Assembly: GCA_036390755.1 (NCBI GenBank)
Contig: DASWBH010000020.1
Coordinates: 1 to 59,821, forward strand
DNA from: Thermoanaerobaculia bacterium
GTDB taxonomy: Bacteria; Acidobacteriota; Thermoanaerobaculia; Gp7-AA8
Direction of reading: 5' to 3'
DNA: 59,821 nucleotides
Shown here: positions 28,110-39,083 of the stretch, piece by piece
How the letters are laid out: the number at the start of each line of letters is the position of its first letter
Position numbering within the stretch: position 1 is the first letter of the stretch
Translations under genes and position numbers: made by a program
The notes under the pieces: generated by a model
What the model was told of the DNA's origin: nothing
What the model saw: only the letters and a program-made list of their open reading frames with translations
The model's database searches: none

Positions 28110-28493
28110 ATGCCCAAAGCCGCCGAAGCACTGAGCCGCCGCGAACGCGAAATGATGAACATCATCTTTCGCCACGGCCGGGCCACAGCCACCGAAGTCA
28201 TGGAGCAGATGAACGACGCTCCGAGCTACTCCGCCGTTCGCGCAACGTTGCGCGTTCTCGAGCAGAAGGGACACGTCCGGCATCAGCATGACGGAACGCG
28301 CTACGTCTACATTCCGACGCTGGCGCGGGAGAAAGCGCGCGCGAATGCGCTCGATCAACTCCTCAACACGTTTTTCGACGGATCGGCCGCGAATGTCGTG
28401 GCGACACTCCTGGAAAGAAGAGAACGGCTAACTTCAGAAGAGCTCGAGCGTCTATCGGGCATGATCGACGCCGCACGGCGAGAGGGACGCTGA
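28110..28493 (+). CDS. BlaI/MecI/CopY-family repressor
   Basis: LSRREREMM, SYSAVRATLRVLEQKGHV, FFDGSAANVV. Confidence 0.92.
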   Translation: MPKAAEALSRREREMMNIIFRHGRATATEVMEQMNDAPSYSAVRATLRVLEQKGHVRHQHDGTRYVYIPTLAREKARANALDQLLNTFFDGSAANVVATLLERRERLTSEELERLSGMIDAARREGR

Positions 28494-28494
28494 C

Positions 28495-30840
28495 ATGTCC
28501 ATGATCGAATTTGCTACCCGCGTACAATCCCTCGGCCTCATTCTTCCAGCGCTCCTCGTGCTGCTGAAGGTGACGCTGATCCTCGTGGTCGCGCGCCTTC
28601 TGCTCCTCGCGGTGCCGCACACCTCCGCAGCCGCCAAGCACCTCGGAATCACGCTCGCGCTCTGCAGCGTCATCGCCATTCCGGTCATCGGCATCGCCGT
28701 GCCGGCCTGGCGTCTGGCCGTGTTCCCGGCTCGCTCCGCTACGGCGGCGGCCGAGCAGGCGAAAGTGATCGGCGCGACGGGCGACGAAGACGAAATGCCG
28801 GGCACCGTGGCCACAGCGATCACGGTTGCGAAAGCGGCGCACGTCGTGCCCGCAGAGAAACTCGACGCGCTCTCGCGTGCGGTGGACGCGGTGAAGAGCA
28901 GCTGGCAGGGCTTCCTGCTGATCGCGGTCTCGTCTGTGTCGCTGCTGCTTCTGCTGCGCATGATCGCCGGCGTGGTCGGCGTCGGAGCCGTGGCCCGGCG
29001 CAGCGTCGAGATCACCGATGAAGAATCGCTGCGCGAGCTCGATCGTGCATGCGATTACCTCCGGCTGCCGCGCGAAGTCCACCTGCTCCGCTCCGAGACG
29101 GTGAGCGTGCCTGTCGTGTGGGGCTTCTTCAAACCGATTCTGCTTCTGCCCGGCGGCTCTGTCGAATGGCCTGCCGAACGTCTCCGCGTCGTGCTTCTGC
29201 ACGAGCTCGCGCATGTGAAGCGCTGCGACGGGGTCACGCTCCTCATCACGAAGGCGGCGGTGGCGATGTTCTGGTTCCATCCGCTCGCGTGGTCGCTCGA
29301 GCGGATCGCACGCGCTGAATGCGAGCGCGCGTGCGACGACCTCGTGCTCGACAGCGGGACGAAGCCGTCGGACTACGCCGAGCACCTTCTGTCGATCGCG
29401 AAGACGCTCCCGCGCGTCGACCCGTTCCGAAACGTCACGCTGGCGATGTCGCGCCGCTCGCAGCTCGAAGGCCGCCTCCTCTCGATCCTGCAGCCGCACG
29501 TCCGCCGCGGGAACTTCACTCTGAAGTCGGTGGCGACCGTGGCGGTGCTCTCGATCCTGATGCTGGTCCCGTTCGCGTCGATCCGCCTGGTCGCGGCGCC
29601 GCAGCCGTCTTCCTCGACGGTCACGGTGGTCGCTGACAAGAGCGAGAAGCCGGCCACGTTCGACCTCGAGAAGCTCGTCGATACCTCCAACGTGCTGCTC
29701 GCGAAGTACGACCACCTCGTCAACCGGCGCGCGCCGCAGAGCGGAAAAGAGTGGTACCAGCACGGATACGAGCTGCACAACCACGATCACTTCCGCGAGG
29801 CGATCGAGTCGTTCAAACAGGCAATCGCTCACGGTTATCGCGTCGAAGACTCGATGTACAACATCGCCTGCGGCTACGCGCAGCTCGACGATCCCGTCAA
29901 CGCCGTGACGTGGCTGCGCCAGGCCATCAACGCCGGCTACGACAACTACAGCCACATCGCGTCAGACTCCGACTTCGATCCGATTCGCTCGAACGAAGCG
30001 TTCAAGCAGGTGATGACCGAGGCGCCGGAGCACGAGCGGCACGCGAGCGAGGACCGCCTCGACTCCGCCACGCGCGAGTACCAGGAGCTGCGCAGTCTTC
30101 CTGCCGCCGACGGCGAGGCATGGTTCAGCCTCGGAATGAAGATGCTGCCGCTCCGTCAGTTCGACACGAGCATCGAAGCGTTCAAACAGGCGCTGGCGAA
30201 AGGGTTCAAGCCGGCGACGTCGATGTACAACATCGCCTGCGGTTACGCGCGCAAAGGCGATGTCGCCAGCGGCCTGCAATGGCTGCAGAAGTCGGTCGAA
30301 GAAGGATTCGACTCGGTCGACCACTTCGACGACGACTCGGACCTCGACAACCTTCGCAGCAATCCGCGCTTCGCAGAGATCCGGCGCCTCGCCGAAGATC
30401 TCCGGCTGCAGCCGTCCGACGGCCTGCTCGGCAACATCGCGAACGCAATGTTCAAGAACAACGAGGGATGGGTCGACGCGCTCCCCCGCTTCCGCGCCGC
30501 CACGCAGCAGCACCCGAACCTCGGCCGCCCCTGGTTCAACCTCGGATTCGCGGCGCTGCAGGCCGGCAACAACACCGAGAGCATCAACGCGTTCAAGCGC
30601 GCTCTCGATCTGAACTATCGCGCGCCTACGACGATGTACAACATCGCCTGCGGCTACGCGCGTTCGAATCAGGCCGATGCGGCGATCCAGTGGCTGCAGA
30701 AATCCCGGGCCGCGGGGTTCCAGCTCTCGAACTACATCGATCATGACAACGATCTGGACAACCTGCGTTCGGACGCGCGCTTCCGCGACCTGCGCCGTCA
30801 GGTGAGGGCCGACAAAGAAGCGGAGAAGGACGACAACTAG
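28495..30840 (+). CDS. M56 (BlaR1-like) metallopeptidase with C-terminal TPR repeats
   Basis: VLLHELAHVKRCD, WFHPLAW, ECERACDD; three YNIACGYA...D-D-D-LR modules. Confidence 0.9.
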   Translation: MSMIEFATRVQSLGLILPALLVLLKVTLILVVARLLLLAVPHTSAAAKHLGITLALCSVIAIPVIGIAVPAWRLAVFPARSATAAAEQAKVIGATGDEDEMPGTVATAITVAKAAHVVPAEKLDALSRAVDAVKSSWQGFLLIAVSSVSLLLLLRMIAGVVGVGAVARRSVEITDEESLRELDRACDYLRLPREVHLLRSETVSVPVVWGFFKPILLLPGGSVEWPAERLRVVLLHELAHVKRCDGVTLLITKAAVAMFWFHPLAWSLERIARAECERACDDLVLDSGTKPSDYAEHLLSIAKTLPRVDPFRNVTLAMSRRSQLEGRLLSILQPHVRRGNFTLKSVATVAVLSILMLVPFASIRLVAAPQPSSSTVTVVADKSEKPATFDLEKLVDTSNVLLAKYDHLVNRRAPQSGKEWYQHGYELHNHDHFREAIESFKQAIAHGYRVEDSMYNIACGYAQLDDPVNAVTWLRQAINAGYDNYSHIASDSDFDPIRSNEAFKQVMTEAPEHERHASEDRLDSATREYQELRSLPAADGEAWFSLGMKMLPLRQFDTSIEAFKQALAKGFKPATSMYNIACGYARKGDVASGLQWLQKSVEEGFDSVDHFDDDSDLDNLRSNPRFAEIRRLAEDLRLQPSDGLLGNIANAMFKNNEGWVDALPRFRAATQQHPNLGRPWFNLGFAALQAGNNTESINAFKRALDLNYRAPTTMYNIACGYARSNQADAAIQWLQKSRAAGFQLSNYIDHDNDLDNLRSDARFRDLRRQVRADKEAEKDDN

Positions 30841-31478
30841 GGAACGTAGCTGCGCAGCATCCCGTGCCTGAGGATGCGCGAGATTTCGTGGACCACTTCG
30901 TCAGTTCCTTTGCCGAAGTGGTCCTTCACGCCGAAGAGGATCTCGATCGAGAAGTAGTTGTAGAAAATTCTCGTCGCCAGCATGACCGCTGAGATCGGCG
31001 ACAGTCCTTCCTGCAATCTGCTCTTCAACGGCTCTTCCATCCCGTGCTCTTTTAGGAACGCGTCGAAGCGGTCGGCCATCTCTGCGTAGAACTTCCGGAC
31101 GTGCGAGCCGTCGAACTCGACGACGTCGACGTAAATCAACGCGACGTATTCCCGGTAGTCGCGCACGGTGTCACGCGCCGCGCGTCCGAGAGCTTCGAGA
31201 TTGTCGGGAAACGTGCCTGACGCGAGAGCGCGATTGAACGGGAACTCGGGCGTCGACATCGCCTGGAAATAGCGGTCGAGCAGCGCGCGGAAGATCGTCT
31301 CCTTGTCCGGGAAATGGTGGTAGACGTTTCCCTTCGACAACCCGGCTTCTTCAGCGATGTCCCGGACGCTCGTCGCGCCATACCCGCGATGCGAGAACCA
31401 TTTCAGCGCGGCGTCGAGGATCTGCTGGCGGCTGCGCTCCGAACGCTCGCCCTGCGTCTGCGGAGGTCGTTTCACCAT
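30837..31478 (-). CDS. TetR/AcrR-family regulator
   Basis: ILDAALKWFSHRGYGATSVRDIAEEAGLSKGNVYHHFPDKE. Confidence 0.93.
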   Translation of the reverse strand: MVKRPPQTQGERSERSRQQILDAALKWFSHRGYGATSVRDIAEEAGLSKGNVYHHFPDKETIFRALLDRYFQAMSTPEFPFNRALASGTFPDNLEALGRAARDTVRDYREYVALIYVDVVEFDGSHVRKFYAEMADRFDAFLKEHGMEEPLKSRLQEGLSPISAVMLATRIFYNYFSIEILFGVKDHFGKGTDEVVHEISRILRHGMLRSYVP

Positions 31479-31488
31479 CACTCGCGGT

Positions 31489-32949
31489 TCAGAATAGCTG
31501 GTCACGAAGTTTTCCCTTCTCGACTTTTCCGTACGGCGTGCGAGGCAGCACGTCGACGAACACGAACTGCTTCGGCACCTTGTATTTCGAAATGCGCAAC
31601 GTGAGATAGGAGCCCAGGTCGGCCGGGGAGACGTCGTGCGCGACGACGAAGGCGACGCCGACTTCGCCCCACGTCTCGTCCGGAATGGCAACGACGGCAG
31701 CATCGCTGACGGCCGGATGCTGCACGAGCTCCGCTTCGATCTCGGCCGGATAGACGTTCACTCCACCCGTGATGAACATCTCTTTCCGCCTGCCTGCGAT
31801 GTAGAAGAAGCCGTCCTCATCCCGGCGCGCCAGGTCGCCCGTCCGGAACCAGCCATCGTGGCTGTACGCATCGTTCGTCGCGGCCTCGTTCTGCCAATAG
31901 CCGAGGCTGACGTGAGGGCCGCGGATGTACATCTCGCCGATCTCGTCGGTCTTCACTTCGCGACCTTCGCTGTCGAGCAAGCGGACATCGGTGAACATCA
32001 TCGGCCTGCCGATCGAGCCCGGCTTCCGATACGAGTCGCCGACGCTCATCGTGAAGCAGTTCACGCCGACCTCGGTCATGCCGTAGCCCTGTTTGAACAC
32101 GACGCCGCGCTCCTGATACGCGTCGATGATGTACGCGGGAAGCGGCGCGCCGCCGCTGATGAACCAGCGCACGTGATCGAGCCGCGCAGTTGCGAACTCC
32201 GGCGCGTCCATCAACATCTTCCAGATCGTCGGAACGCCCAGGACGACCGTGCATCGCTCGCGCTCGATCGTCCGCCAGATCTCGGTGACATCGAAGCTCT
32301 TGTGCAGGACGACGGTGCCGCCCGCGCAGAAGATCGGAATCAGGAACGCGGCAAGTCCGCCGGCGTGGTACATCGGCGTGAAGACCGGGCTGACGTCGTC
32401 GTCGCGCAGCCCCCAGTTCATCACCGTGTTGTAGCCGTTCCAGAGCAACTGCCGGCGCGGAATCATCACACCTTTCGGCTTGCCCGTCGTACCGCTCGTG
32501 TAGAGCAGGCAGTGAACGTTTTCCCCCTCTCCCGCGCGCGGGAGAGGGTGGCGCGAAGCGCCGGGTGAGGGCACGGTTAACGGTTGACGGTTAACGGTTA
32601 ACGAAGCGGAGATGGCGGCGAACTCCGGCCCATACCAGAGTGCTTTCATGGCGCAGTCTTCGACAACGTGCTCCAGCTCGTGCGCCGTCGCGCGCGTCGA
32701 GAGCGGAACGACGATCGCCCCTGTGCGTGCCGCGGCGAAGAAGAACGCCAAGTAGTCGGCGCAGTTGTGCGCCAGAATTCCGTAGCGATCGCCCGCGCCG
32801 ACTCCGGCAGCGCGAATCGCCGCTGCGGCGCGTTCGGTGCGCTCGTGGAGGTGCGCGTAGGTCAGGCGCTCGCCGGTTGCGATCTCGATGATCGCGATTT
32901 TTTCCGGCGTGATGCGCGCCCGCTCCGCTATGAGGTCGCCATCAAACAT
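31489..32949 (-). CDS. Acyl-CoA synthetase / AMP-binding enzyme
   Basis: YTSGTTGKPKG, QGYGMTE, TGDLA, GRRKEM; start MFDGDLIAERA at 32949. Confidence 0.92.
   Translation of the reverse strand: MFDGDLIAERARITPEKIAIIEIATGERLTYAHLHERTERAAAAIRAAGVGAGDRYGILAHNCADYLAFFFAAARTGAIVVPLSTRATAHELEHVVEDCAMKALWYGPEFAAISASLTVNRQPLTVPSPGASRHPLPRAGEGENVHCLLYTSGTTGKPKGVMIPRRQLLWNGYNTVMNWGLRDDDVSPVFTPMYHAGGLAAFLIPIFCAGGTVVLHKSFDVTEIWRTIERERCTVVLGVPTIWKMLMDAPEFATARLDHVRWFISGGAPLPAYIIDAYQERGVVFKQGYGMTEVGVNCFTMSVGDSYRKPGSIGRPMMFTDVRLLDSEGREVKTDEIGEMYIRGPHVSLGYWQNEAATNDAYSHDGWFRTGDLARRDEDGFFYIAGRRKEMFITGGVNVYPAEIEAELVQHPAVSDAAVVAIPDETWGEVGVAFVVAHDVSPADLGSYLTLRISKYKVPKQFVFVDVLPRTPYGKVEKGKLRDQLF
32525..32600. repeat. 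REP-like palindrome plus (ACGGTTA)x4 array, in frame in the acyl-CoA synthetase
   Basis: CCCTCTCCC-GCGCGC-GGGAGAGGG, GGCGC-GAA-GCGCC, GGGTGAGGG at 32525-32571; heptamers at 32573-32600. Confidence 0.85.
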
Positions 32950-33725
32950 TCGACGAATCGCTCCGGCTGCTGCAGATGCGGAACGTGCGCGGCCGCGTTG
33001 ATGACGCTCAGCTTCGCTCCGGCGATCCCCTTCTGCAGCGCTTCCGCATACGCGAGCGGCAGAACGCCGTCGTCCGCGCCCCATACCAGCGTCGTCGGCG
33101 CGCTGATCAGCGACAGCCGCGAGTCGACGAAGCTCTGCATCGCGCCAGTGAGACGAAGCATCGGCGAATCGCTCGATCGCAGCAGCAGCGAGTCGATCAC
33201 CCAATCCTGCGGCACGTAATTCGGACCGTGCACGGCGCGAAGAATCGTCATCGCCGTGGCGCGGTCGCCGGCGGTCAGCGGAACGGCGAGCGGTCTGGCC
33301 AGCCCTCCACCCGATTCCAGCACGAGTCGTTTGACGCGGCCGGGATGCGCGAGCGTGTACAGGATCGCGATCCACGCACCAAACGAGTTGCCGGCCAGCA
33401 CGATGTTGTCGGCGTGCTCGCGATCGAGGACGCGATGCAACTGGTCGACGACGAGCGAGAACGGAATCGGGCCGCTCTTCGGATCGCTGTCGCCGTGGCC
33501 AGCGAGATCGGGAATGATCAGTCGGTACTTTCCTGCCAGCAGCGGCGCGACGCGCGCCCACGTGCCTGCCTGATCGTTCGTGCCGTGCAGGAGCACGAGC
33601 GCCTCCGTTCCCTTGCCTCCCACCCAGTACACCGAGCCGGAAAACTGTTCGCGCGCGAGGCCCGACGCATTGAGCATCGCCCGCATCGTGCGAATCAGTT
33701 CCACTGCGGGATCAGTTGCGCTCAT
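32928..33725 (-). CDS. Alpha/beta hydrolase
   Basis: LLHGT, PDLAGHGDS, GNSFG nucleophile elbow, WGADD, AAHVPH. Confidence 0.9.
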   Translation of the reverse strand: MSATDPAVELIRTMRAMLNASGLAREQFSGSVYWVGGKGTEALVLLHGTNDQAGTWARVAPLLAGKYRLIIPDLAGHGDSDPKSGPIPFSLVVDQLHRVLDREHADNIVLAGNSFGAWIAILYTLAHPGRVKRLVLESGGGLARPLAVPLTAGDRATAMTILRAVHGPNYVPQDWVIDSLLLRSSDSPMLRLTGAMQSFVDSRLSLISAPTTLVWGADDGVLPLAYAEALQKGIAGAKLSVINAAAHVPHLQQPERFVECLMATS

Positions 33726-34734
33726 AAAGCCGCTTCTCCTTGACGGGCATACGGAACGCCGCTGCGGCCTGGTTGTATCCGACGCCCGAGCCGACCATCA
33801 CCACCAGGTCGCCGGGCTTGATTTTCCTCTGATTCAGCGCGTCGTCGAGCGCCATCGGAATGCACGCGGAGCCGGTGTAGCCCTGCTGCTCCATGATCGT
33901 GTGCGTCTTCTCCATCGGCAGCCCGAGGTCGTTCATGACGAGCTCGATGGTCGGCTTGCGCACCTGCGTGAAGATCGCAAAATCGATGTCCTTCACCTCG
34001 AAACCGCCGTTCTTCGCGACCTGACGCACCAGCTTCGGCCAGCCTGCGTTGTTGATCTCTGCCGGATAGCGTTCGATCATCTTCACTCTCGTGCGGCCGC
34101 CGCGGATCGCTTCCTCGCTGGCCGGTTCCACGGTGCCGCCGGCCGGAATGAGCCAGTTCTTGTGATACGAGCCGTCCGCTGCGAATGCTGATGCGATAAA
34201 GCCCGGCTCGTCGCTGCGCTCGAGAATCGCGGCTCCGGCGCCGTCGCCGTAAAAAAAGATCATCGGGTCGTCACACGTCGCCAGCTTGTGCATCATGTAG
34301 ACGCCCACGACGAGCACGGTTTTCAGCCCGGCATTCGACGACATCAGACCGGATGCCGTCGAGATCGCCGTCGGGAATGACGCGCACGCGCAGCCGACGT
34401 CGAACGTGCCGGCGTTCTTCGCGCCCAGCTTGCTCTGCAGCACGACCGACGTTGCCGGCGTAATGTAATCGGGCGAGTCCGTTCCGAGGATGATGAGATC
34501 GAGATCGTCGGGAGTCTTGCCGGCGCGTTCGAGCGTCTGACGCGCCGCCCGCAGCGCCAGATCCGACGCCGCCCAATCCTCCGGCGCGTACCAGCGTCGC
34601 GTGATACCGCTCGACGCCTCCATCTTGTCGACGAAATCCGGCACCTCCGCGTCGAACCGCGCGCGGAGCATGTCGTTGGTCACTTCGATCTCCGGCAGAT
34701 AGGCGCCGGTGCTCACAATGTTTGCGTAGGCCAT
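33712..34734 (-). CDS. 3-oxoacyl-ACP synthase III (FabH)-like enzyme with altered His/Asn residues
   Basis: DVGCACASF Cys; YGDGAGA; IFTQV replaces PHQAN; GYTGSA replaces GNTS; GSGVG. Confidence 0.88.
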   Translation of the reverse strand: MAYANIVSTGAYLPEIEVTNDMLRARFDAEVPDFVDKMEASSGITRRWYAPEDWAASDLALRAARQTLERAGKTPDDLDLIILGTDSPDYITPATSVVLQSKLGAKNAGTFDVGCACASFPTAISTASGLMSSNAGLKTVLVVGVYMMHKLATCDDPMIFFYGDGAGAAILERSDEPGFIASAFAADGSYHKNWLIPAGGTVEPASEEAIRGGRTRVKMIERYPAEINNAGWPKLVRQVAKNGGFEVKDIDFAIFTQVRKPTIELVMNDLGLPMEKTHTIMEQQGYTGSACIPMALDDALNQRKIKPGDLVVMVGSGVGYNQAAAAFRMPVKEKRLYERN

Positions 34735-35459
34735 CACGTCCCCAGGACCAATCCTCCGTCGACAGACAGAACTGCGCCAGATACGAACTTCGCCGCGTCA
34801 CTGGCGAGCCACGCGTAGGCGTTCGCGATGTCTTCCGGCTCGCCCATCTTCCCGAGCGGAGTCTTCGCCGTCATCGAGTCGAGCACCTTCGGCGGCATCG
34901 ACTTCACCATCTCCGTGGCGATGAATCCCGGCGCGACGGCGTTCACTCGGATGTTGTACTTGCCGAGCTCGCGCGACCACGTCTTCGTGAAGCTGATCAC
35001 GCCGGCTTTCGTTGCCGCGTAGTTGGTCTGTCCGAAATTTCCGTACAACCCGACGATCGACGACGCGTTGAGGATCACGCCGCGCCCCGCTTTGATCATG
35101 TGCGGCACGACTGCGCGCGTGCAGAGGAACACGCCCTTGAGGTTCACGCCGATGACCTCGTCGAACGCTGCGTCGCTCATCGTCGCGACCACAGCACCGT
35201 CCTTCCAGCGCACGAGTTGTGAATCGCGAAGAATGCCGGCGTTGTTCACGAGCACGTCGATGCGGCCGTGTTTCGATACGACGTCAGCGGTCGAGGCTTC
35301 GACCGATTCGCGCTTCGTCACGTCGATCCTCGGATCACTCGTCACGTCCCACACGACGACGCGCGCCCCTTCCGCTGCGAACCGCTCCGCGGTGGCGCGA
35401 CCGATGCCGGCCGCGCCACCGGTGATCACAACAACTTTGTCGCGGAGCCCAAGCTCCAC
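34734..35459 (-). CDS. FabG-like short-chain dehydrogenase
   Basis: TGGAAGIG, NNAGI, GQTNYAATKAG, NAVAPGFI. Confidence 0.93.
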   Translation of the reverse strand: MELGLRDKVVVITGGAAGIGRATAERFAAEGARVVVWDVTSDPRIDVTKRESVEASTADVVSKHGRIDVLVNNAGILRDSQLVRWKDGAVVATMSDAAFDEVIGVNLKGVFLCTRAVVPHMIKAGRGVILNASSIVGLYGNFGQTNYAATKAGVISFTKTWSRELGKYNIRVNAVAPGFIATEMVKSMPPKVLDSMTAKTPLGKMGEPEDIANAYAWLASDAAKFVSGAVLSVDGGLVLGT

Positions 35460-35460
35460 G

Positions 35461-38211
35461 CTAGAACACCCACCGCAATCCGAGCTGGAACTCGCGCCCG
35501 GGCAGCGTCGCGCTGAACAGTCCGAACCGCGGATTCTTCACCGGCTGTGTATTCGGGTTTGCCGCAGTCGGACCGCTGAGGAACTCGCCGCTGTTGATCG
35601 ACTGCACATCGAAATTCGTCACGTTCGTAATGTTGAACGCTTCGGCGATGGCTTCGAGCTGGCCGAATCCGCCAACCGCGAATCCCTTCGTCAGACGCAG
35701 CGAGAGCTGGCGGAACGGAGGACCGTCCATCGTGTTGCGGCCGATGCCGGGCGCGCGGTCGGAATTGAACGAATCACCGTTGAAGTCATAGCCGAGGCGA
35801 TGCGTCCACGGCTGGCCCGAGCCGTACTCGTAGATGGGAGCGATCATGAAGCCCGCCGGCAGATGGAAGACACCGCTGACCACGACGCGGTAACGCTCGT
35901 CGCCACGCCCACGGCCGTACTCCGCCGCCATGTTCGCCGGGTCGTTCGGATATCCGGACGTGAAGTCCGGACTGAAGTCATCGCTGATGTTTTTCTTGTT
36001 CGCCAACGTCACGGAAGCCGTGAGCAGATCGTTCGAGCGCACGTTTCCGTTCAGCGAGAAGACGAACGCCGCGTACTTCGAGTGCCCGCTGTTGTCGTAC
36101 ATGTTCACGACGTTGTACTGCGGGTAAATCGGCTTGCGCGTGTCGTTGCCGGTCCAGTTGATGTTGTGAATGGTGATTTCCTTCTCACCCTTCGCGTACA
36201 CCGCCTCGGTGTCGAGGAAGACCCGCGACTGGCCGAGCTTCATCGTGTAGCCGACGGAAGCCTGCGTCGCCTCCGGGTTCACGAGATTCGGCGAGAGAAG
36301 CACGATCGACGGCTTCGAGACGATGCCCGTCGTCGTCGGATTGTTCGGGTCGAGCGCCAACTGCGGAAGGCCGAACAGCGCGCCGTTGAGACGCGAGAAG
36401 GTCACGCGGCCAGTCACGCCGTTCTGCTGCAGCTCGCTCAGCGCCGGCACGAGGAGGAACCGTCCGGTGAACCGGCCGACGCCGCCGCGGACGACATTCG
36501 TTCCGTTCCCGGCGATGTCGTAGCTGAACGAGACACGCGGCTGGTAGTTGTTGGTGTCGCGTTTGCGCGGATTCGGAATCAGAGGATGCGTGAATCCGGC
36601 GTTGTTGCCGTTGGTGTCGAGGTCATAACGGAGTCCGGCATTGATGAGGAGCTTCATCGTCGGATGCCACGAGTCTTCGAGGAACGCGCCCCAGAGGTTC
36701 GTGTTCGTGCTGACATCCGAAGAACCGACGCCGTAGAAGTACGCGAGCGGCAGGGCGCGCGTGTCGGTCAGGTAAAGGAAGAGGCCGTACTGGTAGGTGT
36801 CGAGGCGGAAGCGCTCGTGAACGTGCTGCACTGACAGACCGGCCTTCAGATCCTGAGCGGCGAAGTGCTGGTGCCATGCGTCGCGAAGCTCGACGGTGTT
36901 TCCGTCGCCGAGAAGGTTGCCGAGGATGTTGCCGCCGGTCTGGAGCGTGTTGCCGCTCGAGAACCACTCCGCGACGCTCTGCGAGTTCGTCGGTTCGAAG
37001 AAGCGGCGCGTGCCGTATTGCAGGCGCGCCTCGTTGAACGCGTCGTTCGACACCGACCAGTTGTGCTCGAACGTGCCGTTCCAGTTGCGGCGCTCGAGCG
37101 TCTGTCCGTACGACGGATCCGACACGCCGCCGACGCGGAAGTTGTCTTCGTTGTAGTTCTCGTAGACGCCCTTGAAGCCGCCGGTCATCTGCGAGTTGAA
37201 GTTCATGTCGAGGCTGCCGAAGAGCAGCGTCTGATCGAATGGATGCGAGACGTCGGCGGCGCGGCCTGCATAGGCACCACCCGGGCGGAACAGAACGATG
37301 TTCTTCTCGTTGATCTGCTCGACTGAGCCGAAGTAGAAGAGTTTGTCGCGAACCAGCGGACCGCCGAGCGTGAAGCCGAGCTGGTGGCGCGAGTAGTCGT
37401 TGTTCTTCTCGAGATCGAGCGCGCCTTTCGAGCGCAGCGCCGCATCGCGGAAGAATCCGAACACGTTGCCGTGCATGTTGTTCGTGCCCGACTTGGTCAC
37501 GATCGACATCGCACCGCCGGCCGACCCGCCGATCTCGCTGTCGAACCGGTTGTTGATGACGCGGAACTCGCGCACCGCGTCCTGCGAGAAGCGGGCGCGC
37601 GCGAGACCGTTCACGTCGTCCGTCATGTCGACACCGTTGACGAAGATCGTCGCCTGCGAGGCGTTGCCTCCCGAGCCGATCACCGGACCGCCGTTGATGA
37701 AGCGGAAACCTCCGCGCTCACGTTCGACGCCCGGCGCGATGAAGGCCAGGCGCTCGAACTGACGATCGGCAACGGGGAGTGCCTCGATCTGTTCGGGGAC
37801 GATGTTCGTCGACGAGTCCGTCTTGTGAACGTCGACGACCGGCACGTCGGCGCTGACCGTGATCGTCTCGCTCGACGACGCTTTCATCGTCACGGCGAGC
37901 TTTGCGTTCTCGCCGACGCGCAGCACGAGCTTCTGCTCCTTGATCGGAGCGAAACCTTCGAGCGCGAACTGCACCTGGTAGCCGCCGGGCGCAAGCGCGG
38001 TAAAGCGCGCAAAGCCGGCCGAGTCGGTCACGGCGGTCGTTTCGAAGCCGGTCTCAGGCCGCCCCACTGTGACCGTGACGCCGGGCAGCGGCGCCTTCGA
38101 CTGGTCGAGTGCGACGGCTTCGATCGACGCCTTGTCGACCTGAGCGATTAACGGAACTGCAAGAAAGCAGAGGAGTAATACACCGAGGAGTGCCAGCGGA
38201 CGACGGACCAT
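35461..38211 (-). CDS. TonB-dependent receptor, Oar-like, with carboxypeptidase-regulatory N-terminus
   Basis: Signal peptide; LPGVTVT, KSGTN, GGPLVRDKLFYF, FQLGLRWVF C-terminus. Confidence 0.9.
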   Translation of the reverse strand: MVRRPLALLGVLLLCFLAVPLIAQVDKASIEAVALDQSKAPLPGVTVTVGRPETGFETTAVTDSAGFARFTALAPGGYQVQFALEGFAPIKEQKLVLRVGENAKLAVTMKASSSETITVSADVPVVDVHKTDSSTNIVPEQIEALPVADRQFERLAFIAPGVERERGGFRFINGGPVIGSGGNASQATIFVNGVDMTDDVNGLARARFSQDAVREFRVINNRFDSEIGGSAGGAMSIVTKSGTNNMHGNVFGFFRDAALRSKGALDLEKNNDYSRHQLGFTLGGPLVRDKLFYFGSVEQINEKNIVLFRPGGAYAGRAADVSHPFDQTLLFGSLDMNFNSQMTGGFKGVYENYNEDNFRVGGVSDPSYGQTLERRNWNGTFEHNWSVSNDAFNEARLQYGTRRFFEPTNSQSVAEWFSSGNTLQTGGNILGNLLGDGNTVELRDAWHQHFAAQDLKAGLSVQHVHERFRLDTYQYGLFLYLTDTRALPLAYFYGVGSSDVSTNTNLWGAFLEDSWHPTMKLLINAGLRYDLDTNGNNAGFTHPLIPNPRKRDTNNYQPRVSFSYDIAGNGTNVVRGGVGRFTGRFLLVPALSELQQNGVTGRVTFSRLNGALFGLPQLALDPNNPTTTGIVSKPSIVLLSPNLVNPEATQASVGYTMKLGQSRVFLDTEAVYAKGEKEITIHNINWTGNDTRKPIYPQYNVVNMYDNSGHSKYAAFVFSLNGNVRSNDLLTASVTLANKKNISDDFSPDFTSGYPNDPANMAAEYGRGRGDERYRVVVSGVFHLPAGFMIAPIYEYGSGQPWTHRLGYDFNGDSFNSDRAPGIGRNTMDGPPFRQLSLRLTKGFAVGGFGQLEAIAEAFNITNVTNFDVQSINSGEFLSGPTAANPNTQPVKNPRFGLFSATLPGREFQLGLRWVF

Positions 38212-38231
38212 CGTTCCCTCCGATTTACCGG

Positions 38232-38243
38232 CCGACCGGTCGG
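38232..38243. promoter_or_regulatory. Candidate TetR operator CCGACCGGTCGG
   Basis: Perfect 12-bp palindrome between the promoter and receptor start; resembles common TetR-family operators. Confidence 0.65.
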
Positions 38244-38261
38244 TTTGTTGGTTTGAACCGC

Positions 38262-38290
38262 AATATATGAATATGGATGAGCCATGTCAA
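38262..38290 (-). promoter_or_regulatory. sigma70 promoter TTGACA-N17-TATATT for the receptor operon
   Basis: Near-consensus, read on the minus strand. Confidence 0.8.
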
Positions 38291-38300
38291 TGGCTCCGTC

Positions 38301-38336
38301 GGAGTTCAGAGTTCGCGGTTCGGGATTCGGGGTTTC
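38301..38336. repeat. Degenerate heptamer array (GGAGTTC, AGAGTTC, GCGGTTC, GGGATTC, GGGTTTC)
   Basis: Five related 7-mers in the intergenic region. Confidence 0.6.
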
Positions 38337-38339
38337 GCG

Positions 38340-39083
38340 ATGGATAATGGCGGCGTGTTCCAGCGCCTTCGCTACCTGCTCCGAGGCTTTCTGAGTCTCT
38401 TCATCGGCGGGCTCGAGCGTCGTAACCCCGAAGCGCTCCTCGAAGCGGAGAAGGAGAATTTCCGTAAGCAGATCTCGAACTACAACGGCGGCCTGGCCGC
38501 GCACGCGGGCCTTTGCGAGCGGCTGATGGCGCAGGTGCGGAAGCTCGAGAACGACGACCGCGACCTGCGCGCCAAGACGACTGCGAACCTGCGCGCCGGC
38601 AATCGCGAGGCCGCGGCGCAGTACGCATTGCGATTGCAGACCGTGCAGCGCGAGCTGACCGAAAACCGCGTGCAGCTCGAGCAGGCCGAGAAGACCTACC
38701 GCGAGCTGCTGAAGGCGCGCGACGTGTCGATCCGCGCGGCGCAGGCGAAACTCGAGTCGCTCAAGCAATCGATCGACGACCTGAAGATCAAACGCGCGAC
38801 CGCCGAGCTGACCGAGATGGCAGCGTCGATGATCGGCAACATCGGCGGATCCGGCGACACACTCAATCGGCTGGAAACGATGGTCGAGGACGAGCGCACC
38901 AAGGCGGCCGGCCGGGCGCGTCTCGCACGTGACACGCTCAACACCTCCGAGATCGCCATGAAGGAAGGCGAGCAGCGCGCGCTCGCCGATCAGGCGCTCG
39001 CCGACTTCGAGCATCGTGAAGGCCTCGCTGTGTCCGGCGACGATCTCGATCGCGTCAAACTACTCGGACCTTCGCAGGAGTAG
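38340..39083 (+). CDS. PspA/IM30-family coiled-coil protein (start may be GTG 38355)
   Basis: LERRNPEALLE, long coiled coil, LNRLETMVEDE, ALADFE. Confidence 0.8.
   Translation: MDNGGVFQRLRYLLRGFLSLFIGGLERRNPEALLEAEKENFRKQISNYNGGLAAHAGLCERLMAQVRKLENDDRDLRAKTTANLRAGNREAAAQYALRLQTVQRELTENRVQLEQAEKTYRELLKARDVSIRAAQAKLESLKQSIDDLKIKRATAELTEMAASMIGNIGGSGDTLNRLETMVEDERTKAAGRARLARDTLNTSEIAMKEGEQRALADQALADFEHREGLAVSGDDLDRVKLLGPSQE

Follow-up and report, generated by a model that had tools for sequence, protein, structure and literature searches.

What does an enzyme annotated as a ketoacyl-ACP (acyl carrier protein) synthase III do in an operon that opens with the gene of an outer-membrane receptor? 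The question is raised by contig DASWBH010000020.1 of a metagenome-assembled genome from a soil bacterium of the Thermoanaerobaculia (Acidobacteriota; 4.18 Mb in 503 contigs, 92.7% complete), which we analysed as one stretch of 59,821 nucleotides, hereafter the window. On its minus strand, from 38211 to 30837, Pfam and NCBIfam searches identified six co-directional genes, which encode, in this order, the receptor, a short-chain dehydrogenase/reductase (SDR), an enzyme of the ketoacyl-ACP synthase III fold (KASIII, or KAS for its relatives), an alpha/beta hydrolase, an acyl-coenzyme A (CoA) ligase and a TetR-family regulator. Public records annotate the KASIII as 'ketoacyl-ACP synthase III' and its partner SDR as 'FabG'. 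Pfam finds no fab genes within the operon and no match to the PP-binding (ACP) domain on its contig, the three such matches of the genome being located on other contigs; the lack of an ACP noted in the original prediction, which was made from the letters of the window, is thus confirmed. Our analysis describes the KASIII as a conserved, uncharacterised enzyme variant, encoded within a regulated uptake operon of an ordinary type. We estimate at roughly one in two the probability that this TetR-repressed operon serves the import and catabolism of a carboxylic acid, probably arriving as an ester, a lactone or an oligomer.

Active site of the KASIII and its clade

The KASIII gene (33712-34737) codes for 341 residues from a GTG codon, or 340 from the ATG at 34734, and its product comprises the two domains ACP_syn_III (PF08545, 2.3e-15) and ACP_syn_III_C (PF08541, 1.2e-23). 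It resembles the FabH/KAS III enzymes of Escherichia coli (1hn9) and B. xenovorans (4dfe) in fold, in the presence of both domains, in overall sequence (approximately 30-35% identity) and in its nucleophilic Cys. An AlphaFold2 model (pLDDT 91.4) has FabH 4dfe as its best fold match, with a TM score of 0.87-0.92. The KASIII also retains the GDGAGA and G-x-G loops. In the alignment with E. coli FabH, Cys118 corresponds to Cys112 (FDVGCACASF), whereas Thr257 (IFTQVR) stands at the position of His244 and Tyr287 (QGYTGS) at that of Asn274. The Thr and Tyr columns are the same in HMMER alignments to four solved FabH structures and in two MAFFT alignments, one of 96 and one of 33 sequences. The original prediction had reported a retained Cys, with FTQV in place of the His motif and GYTG in place of the Asn motif, and all three observations stand. 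As His244 and Asn274 are replaced, the canonical His/Asn decarboxylation of malonyl thioesters is not available to the KASIII, in agreement with what had been proposed.

The departure from FabH goes beyond the catalytic pair. The residues Arg249 and Lys256/257, with which FabH docks the ACP, are replaced by Pro, Asn and Asp, and the KASIII scores below the curated FabH cut-offs (182.2 bits against 292.1 for TIGR00747, 204.5 against 249 for NF006829). Since neither its triad nor its scores nor its ACP context are those of a FabH, the protein ought not to be classified as one. It also differs from FabH in its added residues Asp87, N229, W233 and C292, in a near-invariant S317 and in its importer-linked context.

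These residues define a clade. Sixteen full-length representatives of 50%-identity clusters, which reach down to 35% identity, share Cys-Thr-Tyr, and beyond that limit the canonical Cys-His-Asn starts. With the query included, Asp87, Cys118, Thr257, Tyr287, N229, W233 and C292 are invariant in 17/17 clade sequences, and S317 is found in 15 of the 17. A comparison with 72 canonical FabH sequences showed that eight positions (Asp87, Tyr147, Pro225, Asn229, Trp233, Thr257, Tyr287 and Cys292) are invariant or nearly so in the clade and that their residues are absent at those positions in FabH. Gly289 and Ser317 are strongly enriched in the clade, and Cys118 is common to both sets. The clade motifs TD[TS]P, FD[VIL]xxxC, FTQ and GYTGSAC, together with N229 and W233, are present in the window protein, in the 16 representatives and in seven more proteins from other phyla. 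These sequences show the clade to be a set of conserved, rewired enzymes in at least four phyla, and not a decayed copy. Going beyond the original prediction, Thr257 and Tyr287 belong to a conserved tetrad, Asp87-Cys118-Thr257-Tyr287. A search of the ESM Atlas with the KASIII returned only clusters named 'KAS III'.

Where does the acidic residue of the tetrad come from? In a maximum-likelihood tree obtained by a quick search, from which four chimeric or truncated representatives were left out, the clade and one Asp-Cys-Asn-Tyr member form a group with an SH-aLRT support of 100, nested in the FabH radiation. Proteins resembling 3-hydroxy-3-methylglutaryl-CoA (HMG-CoA) synthase (HMGS) lie far off, at a branch length of 3.6. 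An L-INS-i alignment with acidobacterial HMGS-like proteins pairs Asp87 with their catalytic Glu (GTE[ST]), such that the KASIII, like HMG-CoA synthase, has an acidic residue at that position alongside its Cys. The Glu of HMG-CoA synthases is part of an E-C-H-N tetrad (PMC12960953). In contrast, the tetrad of the KASIII is Asp-Cys-Thr-Tyr rather than Glu-Cys-His-Asn, and the protein has no HMG_CoA_synt Pfam match. Since the KASIII is a FabH derivative far from HMGS, its acidic residue was acquired convergently. As Tyr and Thr can hydrogen-bond an enolate and Asp can move a proton, such a site would fit non-decarboxylative enolate chemistry.

As for HMG-CoA-synthase-type genes (GTETAVDMSRP; loci L095-L100), 14 of the 301 sampled Acidobacteriota genomes contain them, and one of the matches, inside an open frame of 3168 residues, is probably a beta-branching domain of a polyketide synthase. 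No HMG-CoA synthase was found in the source genome. Some loci of the clade harbour tandem KAS genes (L105, 10013-11026; L008, 327-2319). Both copies of L008 are of the Asp-Cys-Thr-Tyr type, and the second copy of L105 has Asp-Cys-Leu-His and is without N229, W233 and C292. It is possible that such tandem copies form a heterodimer.

Partner enzymes, importers and their recurrence

The SDR gene (34734-35459) precedes that of the KASIII and encodes a classical SDR of 241 residues (adh_short_C2, 4e-61). The protein scores under every FabG equivalog cut-off and exceeds that of one FabG-named subfamily model only (NF009466, 228 bits for a cut-off of 222). Its N-S-Y-K tetrad is kept, and Asp38, at the end of strand beta-2, is conserved in 73 of 74 orthologues. 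An Asp at that position is the mark of NAD(H)-using SDRs, which identifies the enzyme as NAD(H)-type, a feature that the original prediction did not include. The best solved relatives are 4nbw (305 bits; presumably from Plesiocystis pacifica), 4nbv and 4nbu, and they also comprise 2et6 (207 bits), the yeast (3R)-hydroxyacyl-CoA dehydrogenase of MFE-2. Of these, 4nbu is an NAD-bound FabG from a study of NADH-dependent FabG (PDB 4nbt-4nbw). With these enzymes the operon SDR shares the NAD-type Asp. It is thus probably an NAD-type (3R)-hydroxyacyl-CoA dehydrogenase with a FabG-like fold, and the Asp together with the NAD-bound FabG and (3R)-hydroxyacyl-CoA dehydrogenase relatives favours an oxidative, catabolic direction. 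Unlike its own orthologues in other acidobacterial classes and other phyla, which have approximately 258 residues, the SDR and its closest relatives carry a deletion of about 20 residues between beta-2 and beta-3 (35340-35350, residues ~38-45).

The gene downstream of that of the KASIII (32928-33725) encodes an alpha/beta hydrolase of 265 residues (Abhydrolase_1, 5e-23). With a GNSFG nucleophile elbow and no signal peptide, it reads as a cytoplasmic serine hydrolase. Its relatives are generic ones only. Among family models it has a weak, sub-threshold likeness to those of PcaD, MenH, HsaD, BioH and scl-PHA depolymerase, and among solved structures the best matches are the esterase 5egn and the C-C hydrolases MhpC and BphD, at E values of ~1e-17. 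Next comes the gene of an AMP-forming acyl-CoA ligase of 486 residues (31489-32949; AMP-binding, 5.6e-89, and AMP-binding_C), whose nearest solved enzymes are all CoA ligases, namely the feruloyl/fatty-acyl-CoA synthetase 8wev/8weu (357 bits), FadD13, MatB and MenE. The segment just before its LLYTSGTTGKPKG P-loop (32515-32568, residues 128-145) is of very variable length and sequence in orthologues of the ligase. In five loci (L101, L103, L105, L055 and L078), a protein of the acetyl-CoA hydrolase/transferase family replaces the ligase or adjoins the KAS, and this protein is closest to butyryl-CoA:acetate CoA-transferase. The alternation of a CoA ligase with a CoA-transferase of this type indicates that the step in question is the activation of a carboxylate.

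The first gene of the operon (35461-38211) encodes the outer-membrane receptor, of 916 residues, which has a signal peptide and the domains CarboxypepD_reg, OMP_b-brl_4 and TonB_dep_Rec_b-barrel (PF25183, 3.7e-55; PF13620, 5.8e-15; PF00593, 1.4e-7). A TonB-box-like ETITVSA was read by eye. Orthologues with 51-80% identity occupy the same position in 52 of the 80 loci described below. A larger counterpart in Acidobacteriaceae has a weak Plug match (2.2e-4), and a classical receptor with Plug and barrel takes the place of this receptor type in some loci. More generally, every linked transporter whose polarity is known is an importer, and these importers are of three unrelated kinds: TonB-type receptors, LIV-type ABC transporters with a binding protein, and an Na+/solute symporter that is 56% identical between one Bacteroidota and one acidobacterial locus. 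Some loci also harbour an MFS transporter whose polarity is not known, and no linked transporter is recognisable as an exporter. Two distant clusters (L101, 14263-15624; L105, 3578-4762) encode LIV-type binding proteins whose best solved relatives are in both cases 3n0x and 3nnd. These entries are described only as possible ABC-transporter substrate-binding proteins, and our literature search found no paper on them. These common relatives suggest that one dedicated transporter lineage might serve the substrate.

How widely is this gene set conserved? A pattern scan for GYTGSAC indicated that at least 598 genomes encode KAS relatives. The 80 best loci are all of the Acidobacteriota type (Thermoanaerobaculia, Vicinamibacterales, Terriglobia, Holophagales and Bryobacterales), with KAS identities of 67-84%. 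The KAS gene, present in all 80, is accompanied by genes of the SDR in 72, the ligase in 65, the hydrolase in 64, the TetR regulator in 53 and the receptor in 52, in several gene orders. That the enzymes stay linked although their genes have been rearranged speaks for a functional unit, and in the majority of these loci the four enzymes are again found together with receptor and TetR. An unconserved gene order, which the original prediction had named as grounds for refuting it, is not what we observed. Across acidobacterial classes, the KAS proteins are 65-78% identical. An SCPx-type thiolase gene follows that of the ligase in 31 of the 80 loci. In the source genome, we found only a weak partial match and no close homologue of this thiolase, which, at 92.7% completeness, is no proof of absence. 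A tblastn search with the Chloroflexota protein detected no DUF35 in the acidobacterial loci.

Clade members from other phyla, at 35-63% identity, adjoin the same enzyme types, and the enzyme set is found there with other importers, in Chloroflexota, Bacteroidota, Caldisericia and Anaerolineales. In Caldisericia, the KAS gene is found with genes for a hydrolase, an SDR, a LIV-type ABC importer and a TetR regulator, and in Anaerolineales with those of a ligase, a hydrolase, an SDR and a LIV binding protein. A Chloroflexota plasmid combines the KAS with an SDR, a CoA-transferase, an archaeal-type thiolase (PRK06064, 451 bits, over the cut-off), DUF35, a hydrolase and a LIV ABC transporter. The cultured Bacteroidota Chondrinema litorale WSW3-B12 carries the KAS gene on plasmid NZ_CP111049.1, along with those of a FabG-like SDR, an Na+/solute symporter, a ligase, a hydrolase and a TonB receptor. 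On a sediment contig, the neighbours are a hydrolase, a second KAS, a CoA-transferase and a LIV ABC transporter, and two further loci have a CoA-transferase or a ligase gene directly upstream of that of the KAS. One locus (L081, CAWDCQ010000008.1), binned as 'Methanomassiliicoccales archaeon', encodes a KAS with 68% identity to that of the window, with hydrolase and ligase in the acidobacterial order. The contig seems to be a bacterial one that was mis-binned and therefore says little for an occurrence of the family in archaea.

Control region, gene junctions and borders

The operon is preceded by a strong sigma-70-type promoter on the minus strand (38262-38290), with a -35 hexamer TTGACA at 38290-38285, a 17-nt spacer and a -10 hexamer TATATT at 38267-38262. 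It matches 11 of the 12 consensus positions and is the sole promoter-like site in the 7.9 kb from 30600 to 38500. A putative TetR operator, ACCGACCGGTCGGCCGGT (38227-38244, minus strand), sits between the -10 hexamer and GGAGGGA, the ribosome-binding site of the receptor gene (38221-38215, minus strand). The core of the operator, CCGACCGGTCGG at 38243-38232, is a perfect 12-mer palindrome that occurs once in the window. In the receptor-upstream regions of eight related loci, no block other than the palindrome and the promoter hexamers has been conserved, the rest having diverged: the palindrome precedes the receptor gene in 8/8 close loci, and the TTGACA and TAnnnT hexamers are kept in an alignment of nine upstream regions. 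A related motif resembling ACCGA-N4-TCGGT is found in some more distant loci. The conserved blocks form a phylogenetic footprint left by a real promoter and operator, and we infer that the TetR regulator binds the palindrome. The gene of this regulator (30837-31478; 213 residues; TetR_N, 2.3e-20) is the last of the operon. Its orthologues are 77-88% identical in close loci, and in other lineages the TetR gene lies upstream of that of the receptor.

The six genes are tightly packed. The receptor and SDR genes meet at TAG-C-GTG, the SDR and KASIII genes overlap at GTGATG, the KASIII and hydrolase genes overlap by 14 nt and the hydrolase and ligase genes by 22 nt, and 10 nt separate the ligase gene from that of the TetR regulator. 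The original prediction had listed a promoter, a TetR-type palindrome and these six genes with overlapping or nearly abutting junctions, and we found each of these elements, in that order, between 38290 and 30837. The operon is bordered by a convergent BlaI/BlaR1-like pair downstream and a divergent PspA-like gene upstream. The former (28110-30840, plus strand) encodes a Penicillinase_R-type repressor that resembles BlaI and an M56 peptidase that resembles BlaR1 and has a long TPR tail, and its last stop codon overlaps that of the TetR gene. This pair adjoins the operon in related genomes as well. As for the PspA/IM30-family gene (38277-39083, plus strand), its longest open reading frame begins within the receptor promoter. 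The Pfam match starts at residue 26, which indicates that the true start is probably the second ATG, at ~38340.

Proposed function and its rivals

If the operon works as we propose, the receptor would carry the compound over the outer membrane, and the cytoplasmic serine hydrolase would open an ester-type bond, in an ester or a lactone. The ligase would then form a CoA thioester, and the NAD-dependent SDR would oxidise a (3R)-hydroxyacyl-CoA to the 3-oxoacyl-CoA. The KASIII would act last, via an acyl-Cys118 intermediate, with Thr257 and Tyr287 providing the enolate/oxyanion hole and Asp87 serving as acid/base. As the operon contains no other C-C-cleaving enzyme and the KASIII is the sole candidate, a thiolase-like reaction is favoured, and the most likely step is a CoA-dependent retro-Claisen cleavage that would yield acetyl-CoA. 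Which way the pathway runs, how its steps are ordered, what reaction the KASIII catalyses and what the substrate is are all inferred.

The view that this is an uncharacterised operon for uptake and CoA-dependent processing, already present in the original prediction, is supported by our results. The 'lipid-like' substrate proposed there is now doubtful. The alternation with CoA-transferases and the presence of Na+/solute symporters and LIV-type ABC importers point to a small carboxylate, probably, rather than to a long-chain lipid. Our best reading of the substrate is a short or medium hydroxy-acid or its ester, not clearly a lipid, and (R)-3-hydroxyalkanoates or their esters, such as polyhydroxyalkanoate oligomers, are only a candidate. 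It is tempting to go one step further and to consider Asp-Cys-Thr-Tyr as a new catalytic class of the thiolase superfamily, dedicated to non-decarboxylative enolate chemistry in the form of CoA-dependent C-C cleavage or its reverse, for which a FabH scaffold would have been fitted with an oxyanion hole of Tyr and Thr and with Asp as the base. Together with an NAD-dependent (3R)-hydroxyacyl-CoA dehydrogenase, it would perform an R-specific 'mini beta-oxidation' fuelled by esters of (R)-3-hydroxy acids taken up from outside, for instance polyhydroxyalkanoate oligomers or 3-hydroxy acids derived from lipids. We put forward this more specific proposal tentatively, as one that may well prove wrong.

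Several points weigh against a catabolic operon with a C-C-cleaving KASIII. Our literature search found no paper on the clade, no characterised member and no KASIII with Thr and Tyr at these positions. KAS orthologues (E<=1e-90) are present in 28 of the 301 sampled Acidobacteriota genomes, a patchy distribution that befits an accessory module. In the receptor, Pfam finds no Plug domain at E<=1, and its 'TonB-dependent' label therefore comes from the barrel domains only. The residues W32 and R151, between which CoA adenine stacks in FabH, and R36 are replaced in the alignment of the KASIII, so that its use of CoA follows from the context only. The nearest relatives of the ligase include both long-chain and aromatic-acid ligases and thus do not fix the chain length of the substrate. 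By microscopic reversibility, thiolase-like cleavage should benefit from the His/Asn pair that the KASIII has lost, and the loss alone is thus no pointer to cleavage. Finally, in the loci with an SCPx-type thiolase, accompanied by DUF35 in Chloroflexota, the KAS is not needed for thiolysis.

Alternatively, the KASIII might be an acyltransferase. The acyl-CoA made by the ligase would load Cys118, the acyl group would be passed on to a hydroxyl, an amine or a thiol, and the operon would salvage or modify the imported acid. An invariant Cys without the decarboxylation pair is what one would expect of such an enzyme, the conserved linkage to a CoA-activating enzyme is in keeping with it, and Asp87 could be the general base for the acceptor. 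The logic would be that of CerJ, or that of FabH in its acyl-CoA:ACP transacylase half-reaction; FabH mutants at His244 and Asn274 lose decarboxylation and keep transacylation. Like the KASIII, CerJ and ChlB3/ChlB6 have the fold without malonyl decarboxylation, and they work through an acyl-Cys intermediate. However, the matches to CerJ (3s3l, 1.2e-10) and ChlB3 (7eqi, 1e-9) are remote, and the CerJ/ChlB6-type acyltransferases keep the His (Cys-His-Asp) where the KASIII has Thr. They are also found in polyketide or glycoside clusters, whereas the KASIII stands among transporters and catabolic-type enzymes. For these reasons, the analogy with CerJ and ChlB6 that the original prediction had drawn is weak. 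Moreover, no gene that would supply an acceptor (ACP, sugar or amine pathway) is linked to the KASIII, the contig being without an ACP, and the ACP-docking residues of FabH are not kept. Acyl transfer would also leave the tight pairing of SDR and KAS genes and the NAD-type of the SDR unexplained. We judge this alternative unlikely, if worth keeping in mind.

A biosynthetic route akin to OleABCD or to the beta-lactone synthetase clusters would run from the imported acid to a lipid, a hydrocarbon or a signal. The KASIII would perform a non-decarboxylative head-to-head Claisen condensation with Asp87 as the base, followed by reduction by the SDR, AMP-dependent formation of a lactone, and decarboxylation or release by the hydrolase. 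A thiolase-fold enzyme, an SDR, an AMP-dependent enzyme and an alpha/beta hydrolase are indeed clustered in both cases, as OleA, OleD, OleC and OleB belong to the same four superfamilies. The acidic residue of the KASIII occupies the position of the carbanion-forming base of HMG-CoA synthase, and OleA chains are among the remote PDB matches (3row, 3s21 and others; E ~1e-15, for the N-terminal part only). Nevertheless, OleA keeps Cys-His-Asn in addition to its Glu base, and the KASIII is without that His and Asn. OleD is an extended, NADPH-type SDR, unlike the classical NAD-type enzyme of the operon. A CoA-transferase, an enzyme incapable of lactone formation, repeatedly stands where OleC would be expected, and the ligase itself is nearest to true CoA ligases. 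Besides, the clusters contain a TetR gene and importers, with no recognisable exporter among the linked transporters. We rejected the Ole-type reading on these grounds and regard it as improbable.

Might the KASIII instead be a catalytically dead scaffold, with a thiolase or another partner doing the catalysis? PqsB in PqsBC and PhlA/MucA in HMGS/ACAT/DUF35-type complexes would be precedents. Complexes of the latter kind, HMGS/ACAT/DUF35, include those of the archaeal mevalonate pathway, PhlABC and SmaATase, and inactive partners are known among HMGS-like subunits that have lost the E-C-H-N tetrad (PMC12960953). In some lineages, the KAS likewise adjoins an archaeal-type thiolase, with or without DUF35 (both of them on the Chloroflexota plasmid), and tandem KAS paralogues exist in L105 and L008. 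However, dead subunits such as PhlA lose their Cys (PMC12960953), whereas the clade keeps Cys118 invariant along with Asp87 and shows little or no variation at eight further clade-specific positions. The degree of KAS identity across acidobacterial classes also speaks of strong constraint. Finally, no close thiolase partner was found in the source genome and no DUF35 in the loci examined. A dead scaffold is in our opinion very improbable. Lastly, we discarded and give next to no credence to an ordinary FabH that starts fatty-acid synthesis, its motif differences being due to misalignment: the public annotation and the FabH fold speak for it but the sequence contradicts it, with Thr and Tyr falling precisely into the columns of His and Asn in both HMMER and MAFFT alignments, scores under both curated cut-offs and Cys-His-Asn KAS paralogues elsewhere in the genome (contigs C144 and C237).

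Irrespective of the exact reaction, the annotations 'ketoacyl-ACP synthase III' and 'FabG' wrongly suggest fatty-acid synthesis. The well-studied sites of the thiolase superfamily are Cys-His-Asn, Cys-His-His and Glu-Cys-His; if the module is indeed catabolic, Asp-Cys-Thr-Tyr would be a fourth kind of active site in this superfamily. The system is testable, as Chondrinema litorale WSW3-B12 is a cultured carrier and the enzymes are small and soluble-looking. Should the route be catabolic, it would point to a nutrient niche common to abundant, poorly cultured phyla of soils and sediments. In the more specific form of an R-specific 'mini beta-oxidation', it would allow Acidobacteriota, Chloroflexota, Bacteroidota and others to feed on imported (R)-3-hydroxy-acid esters.

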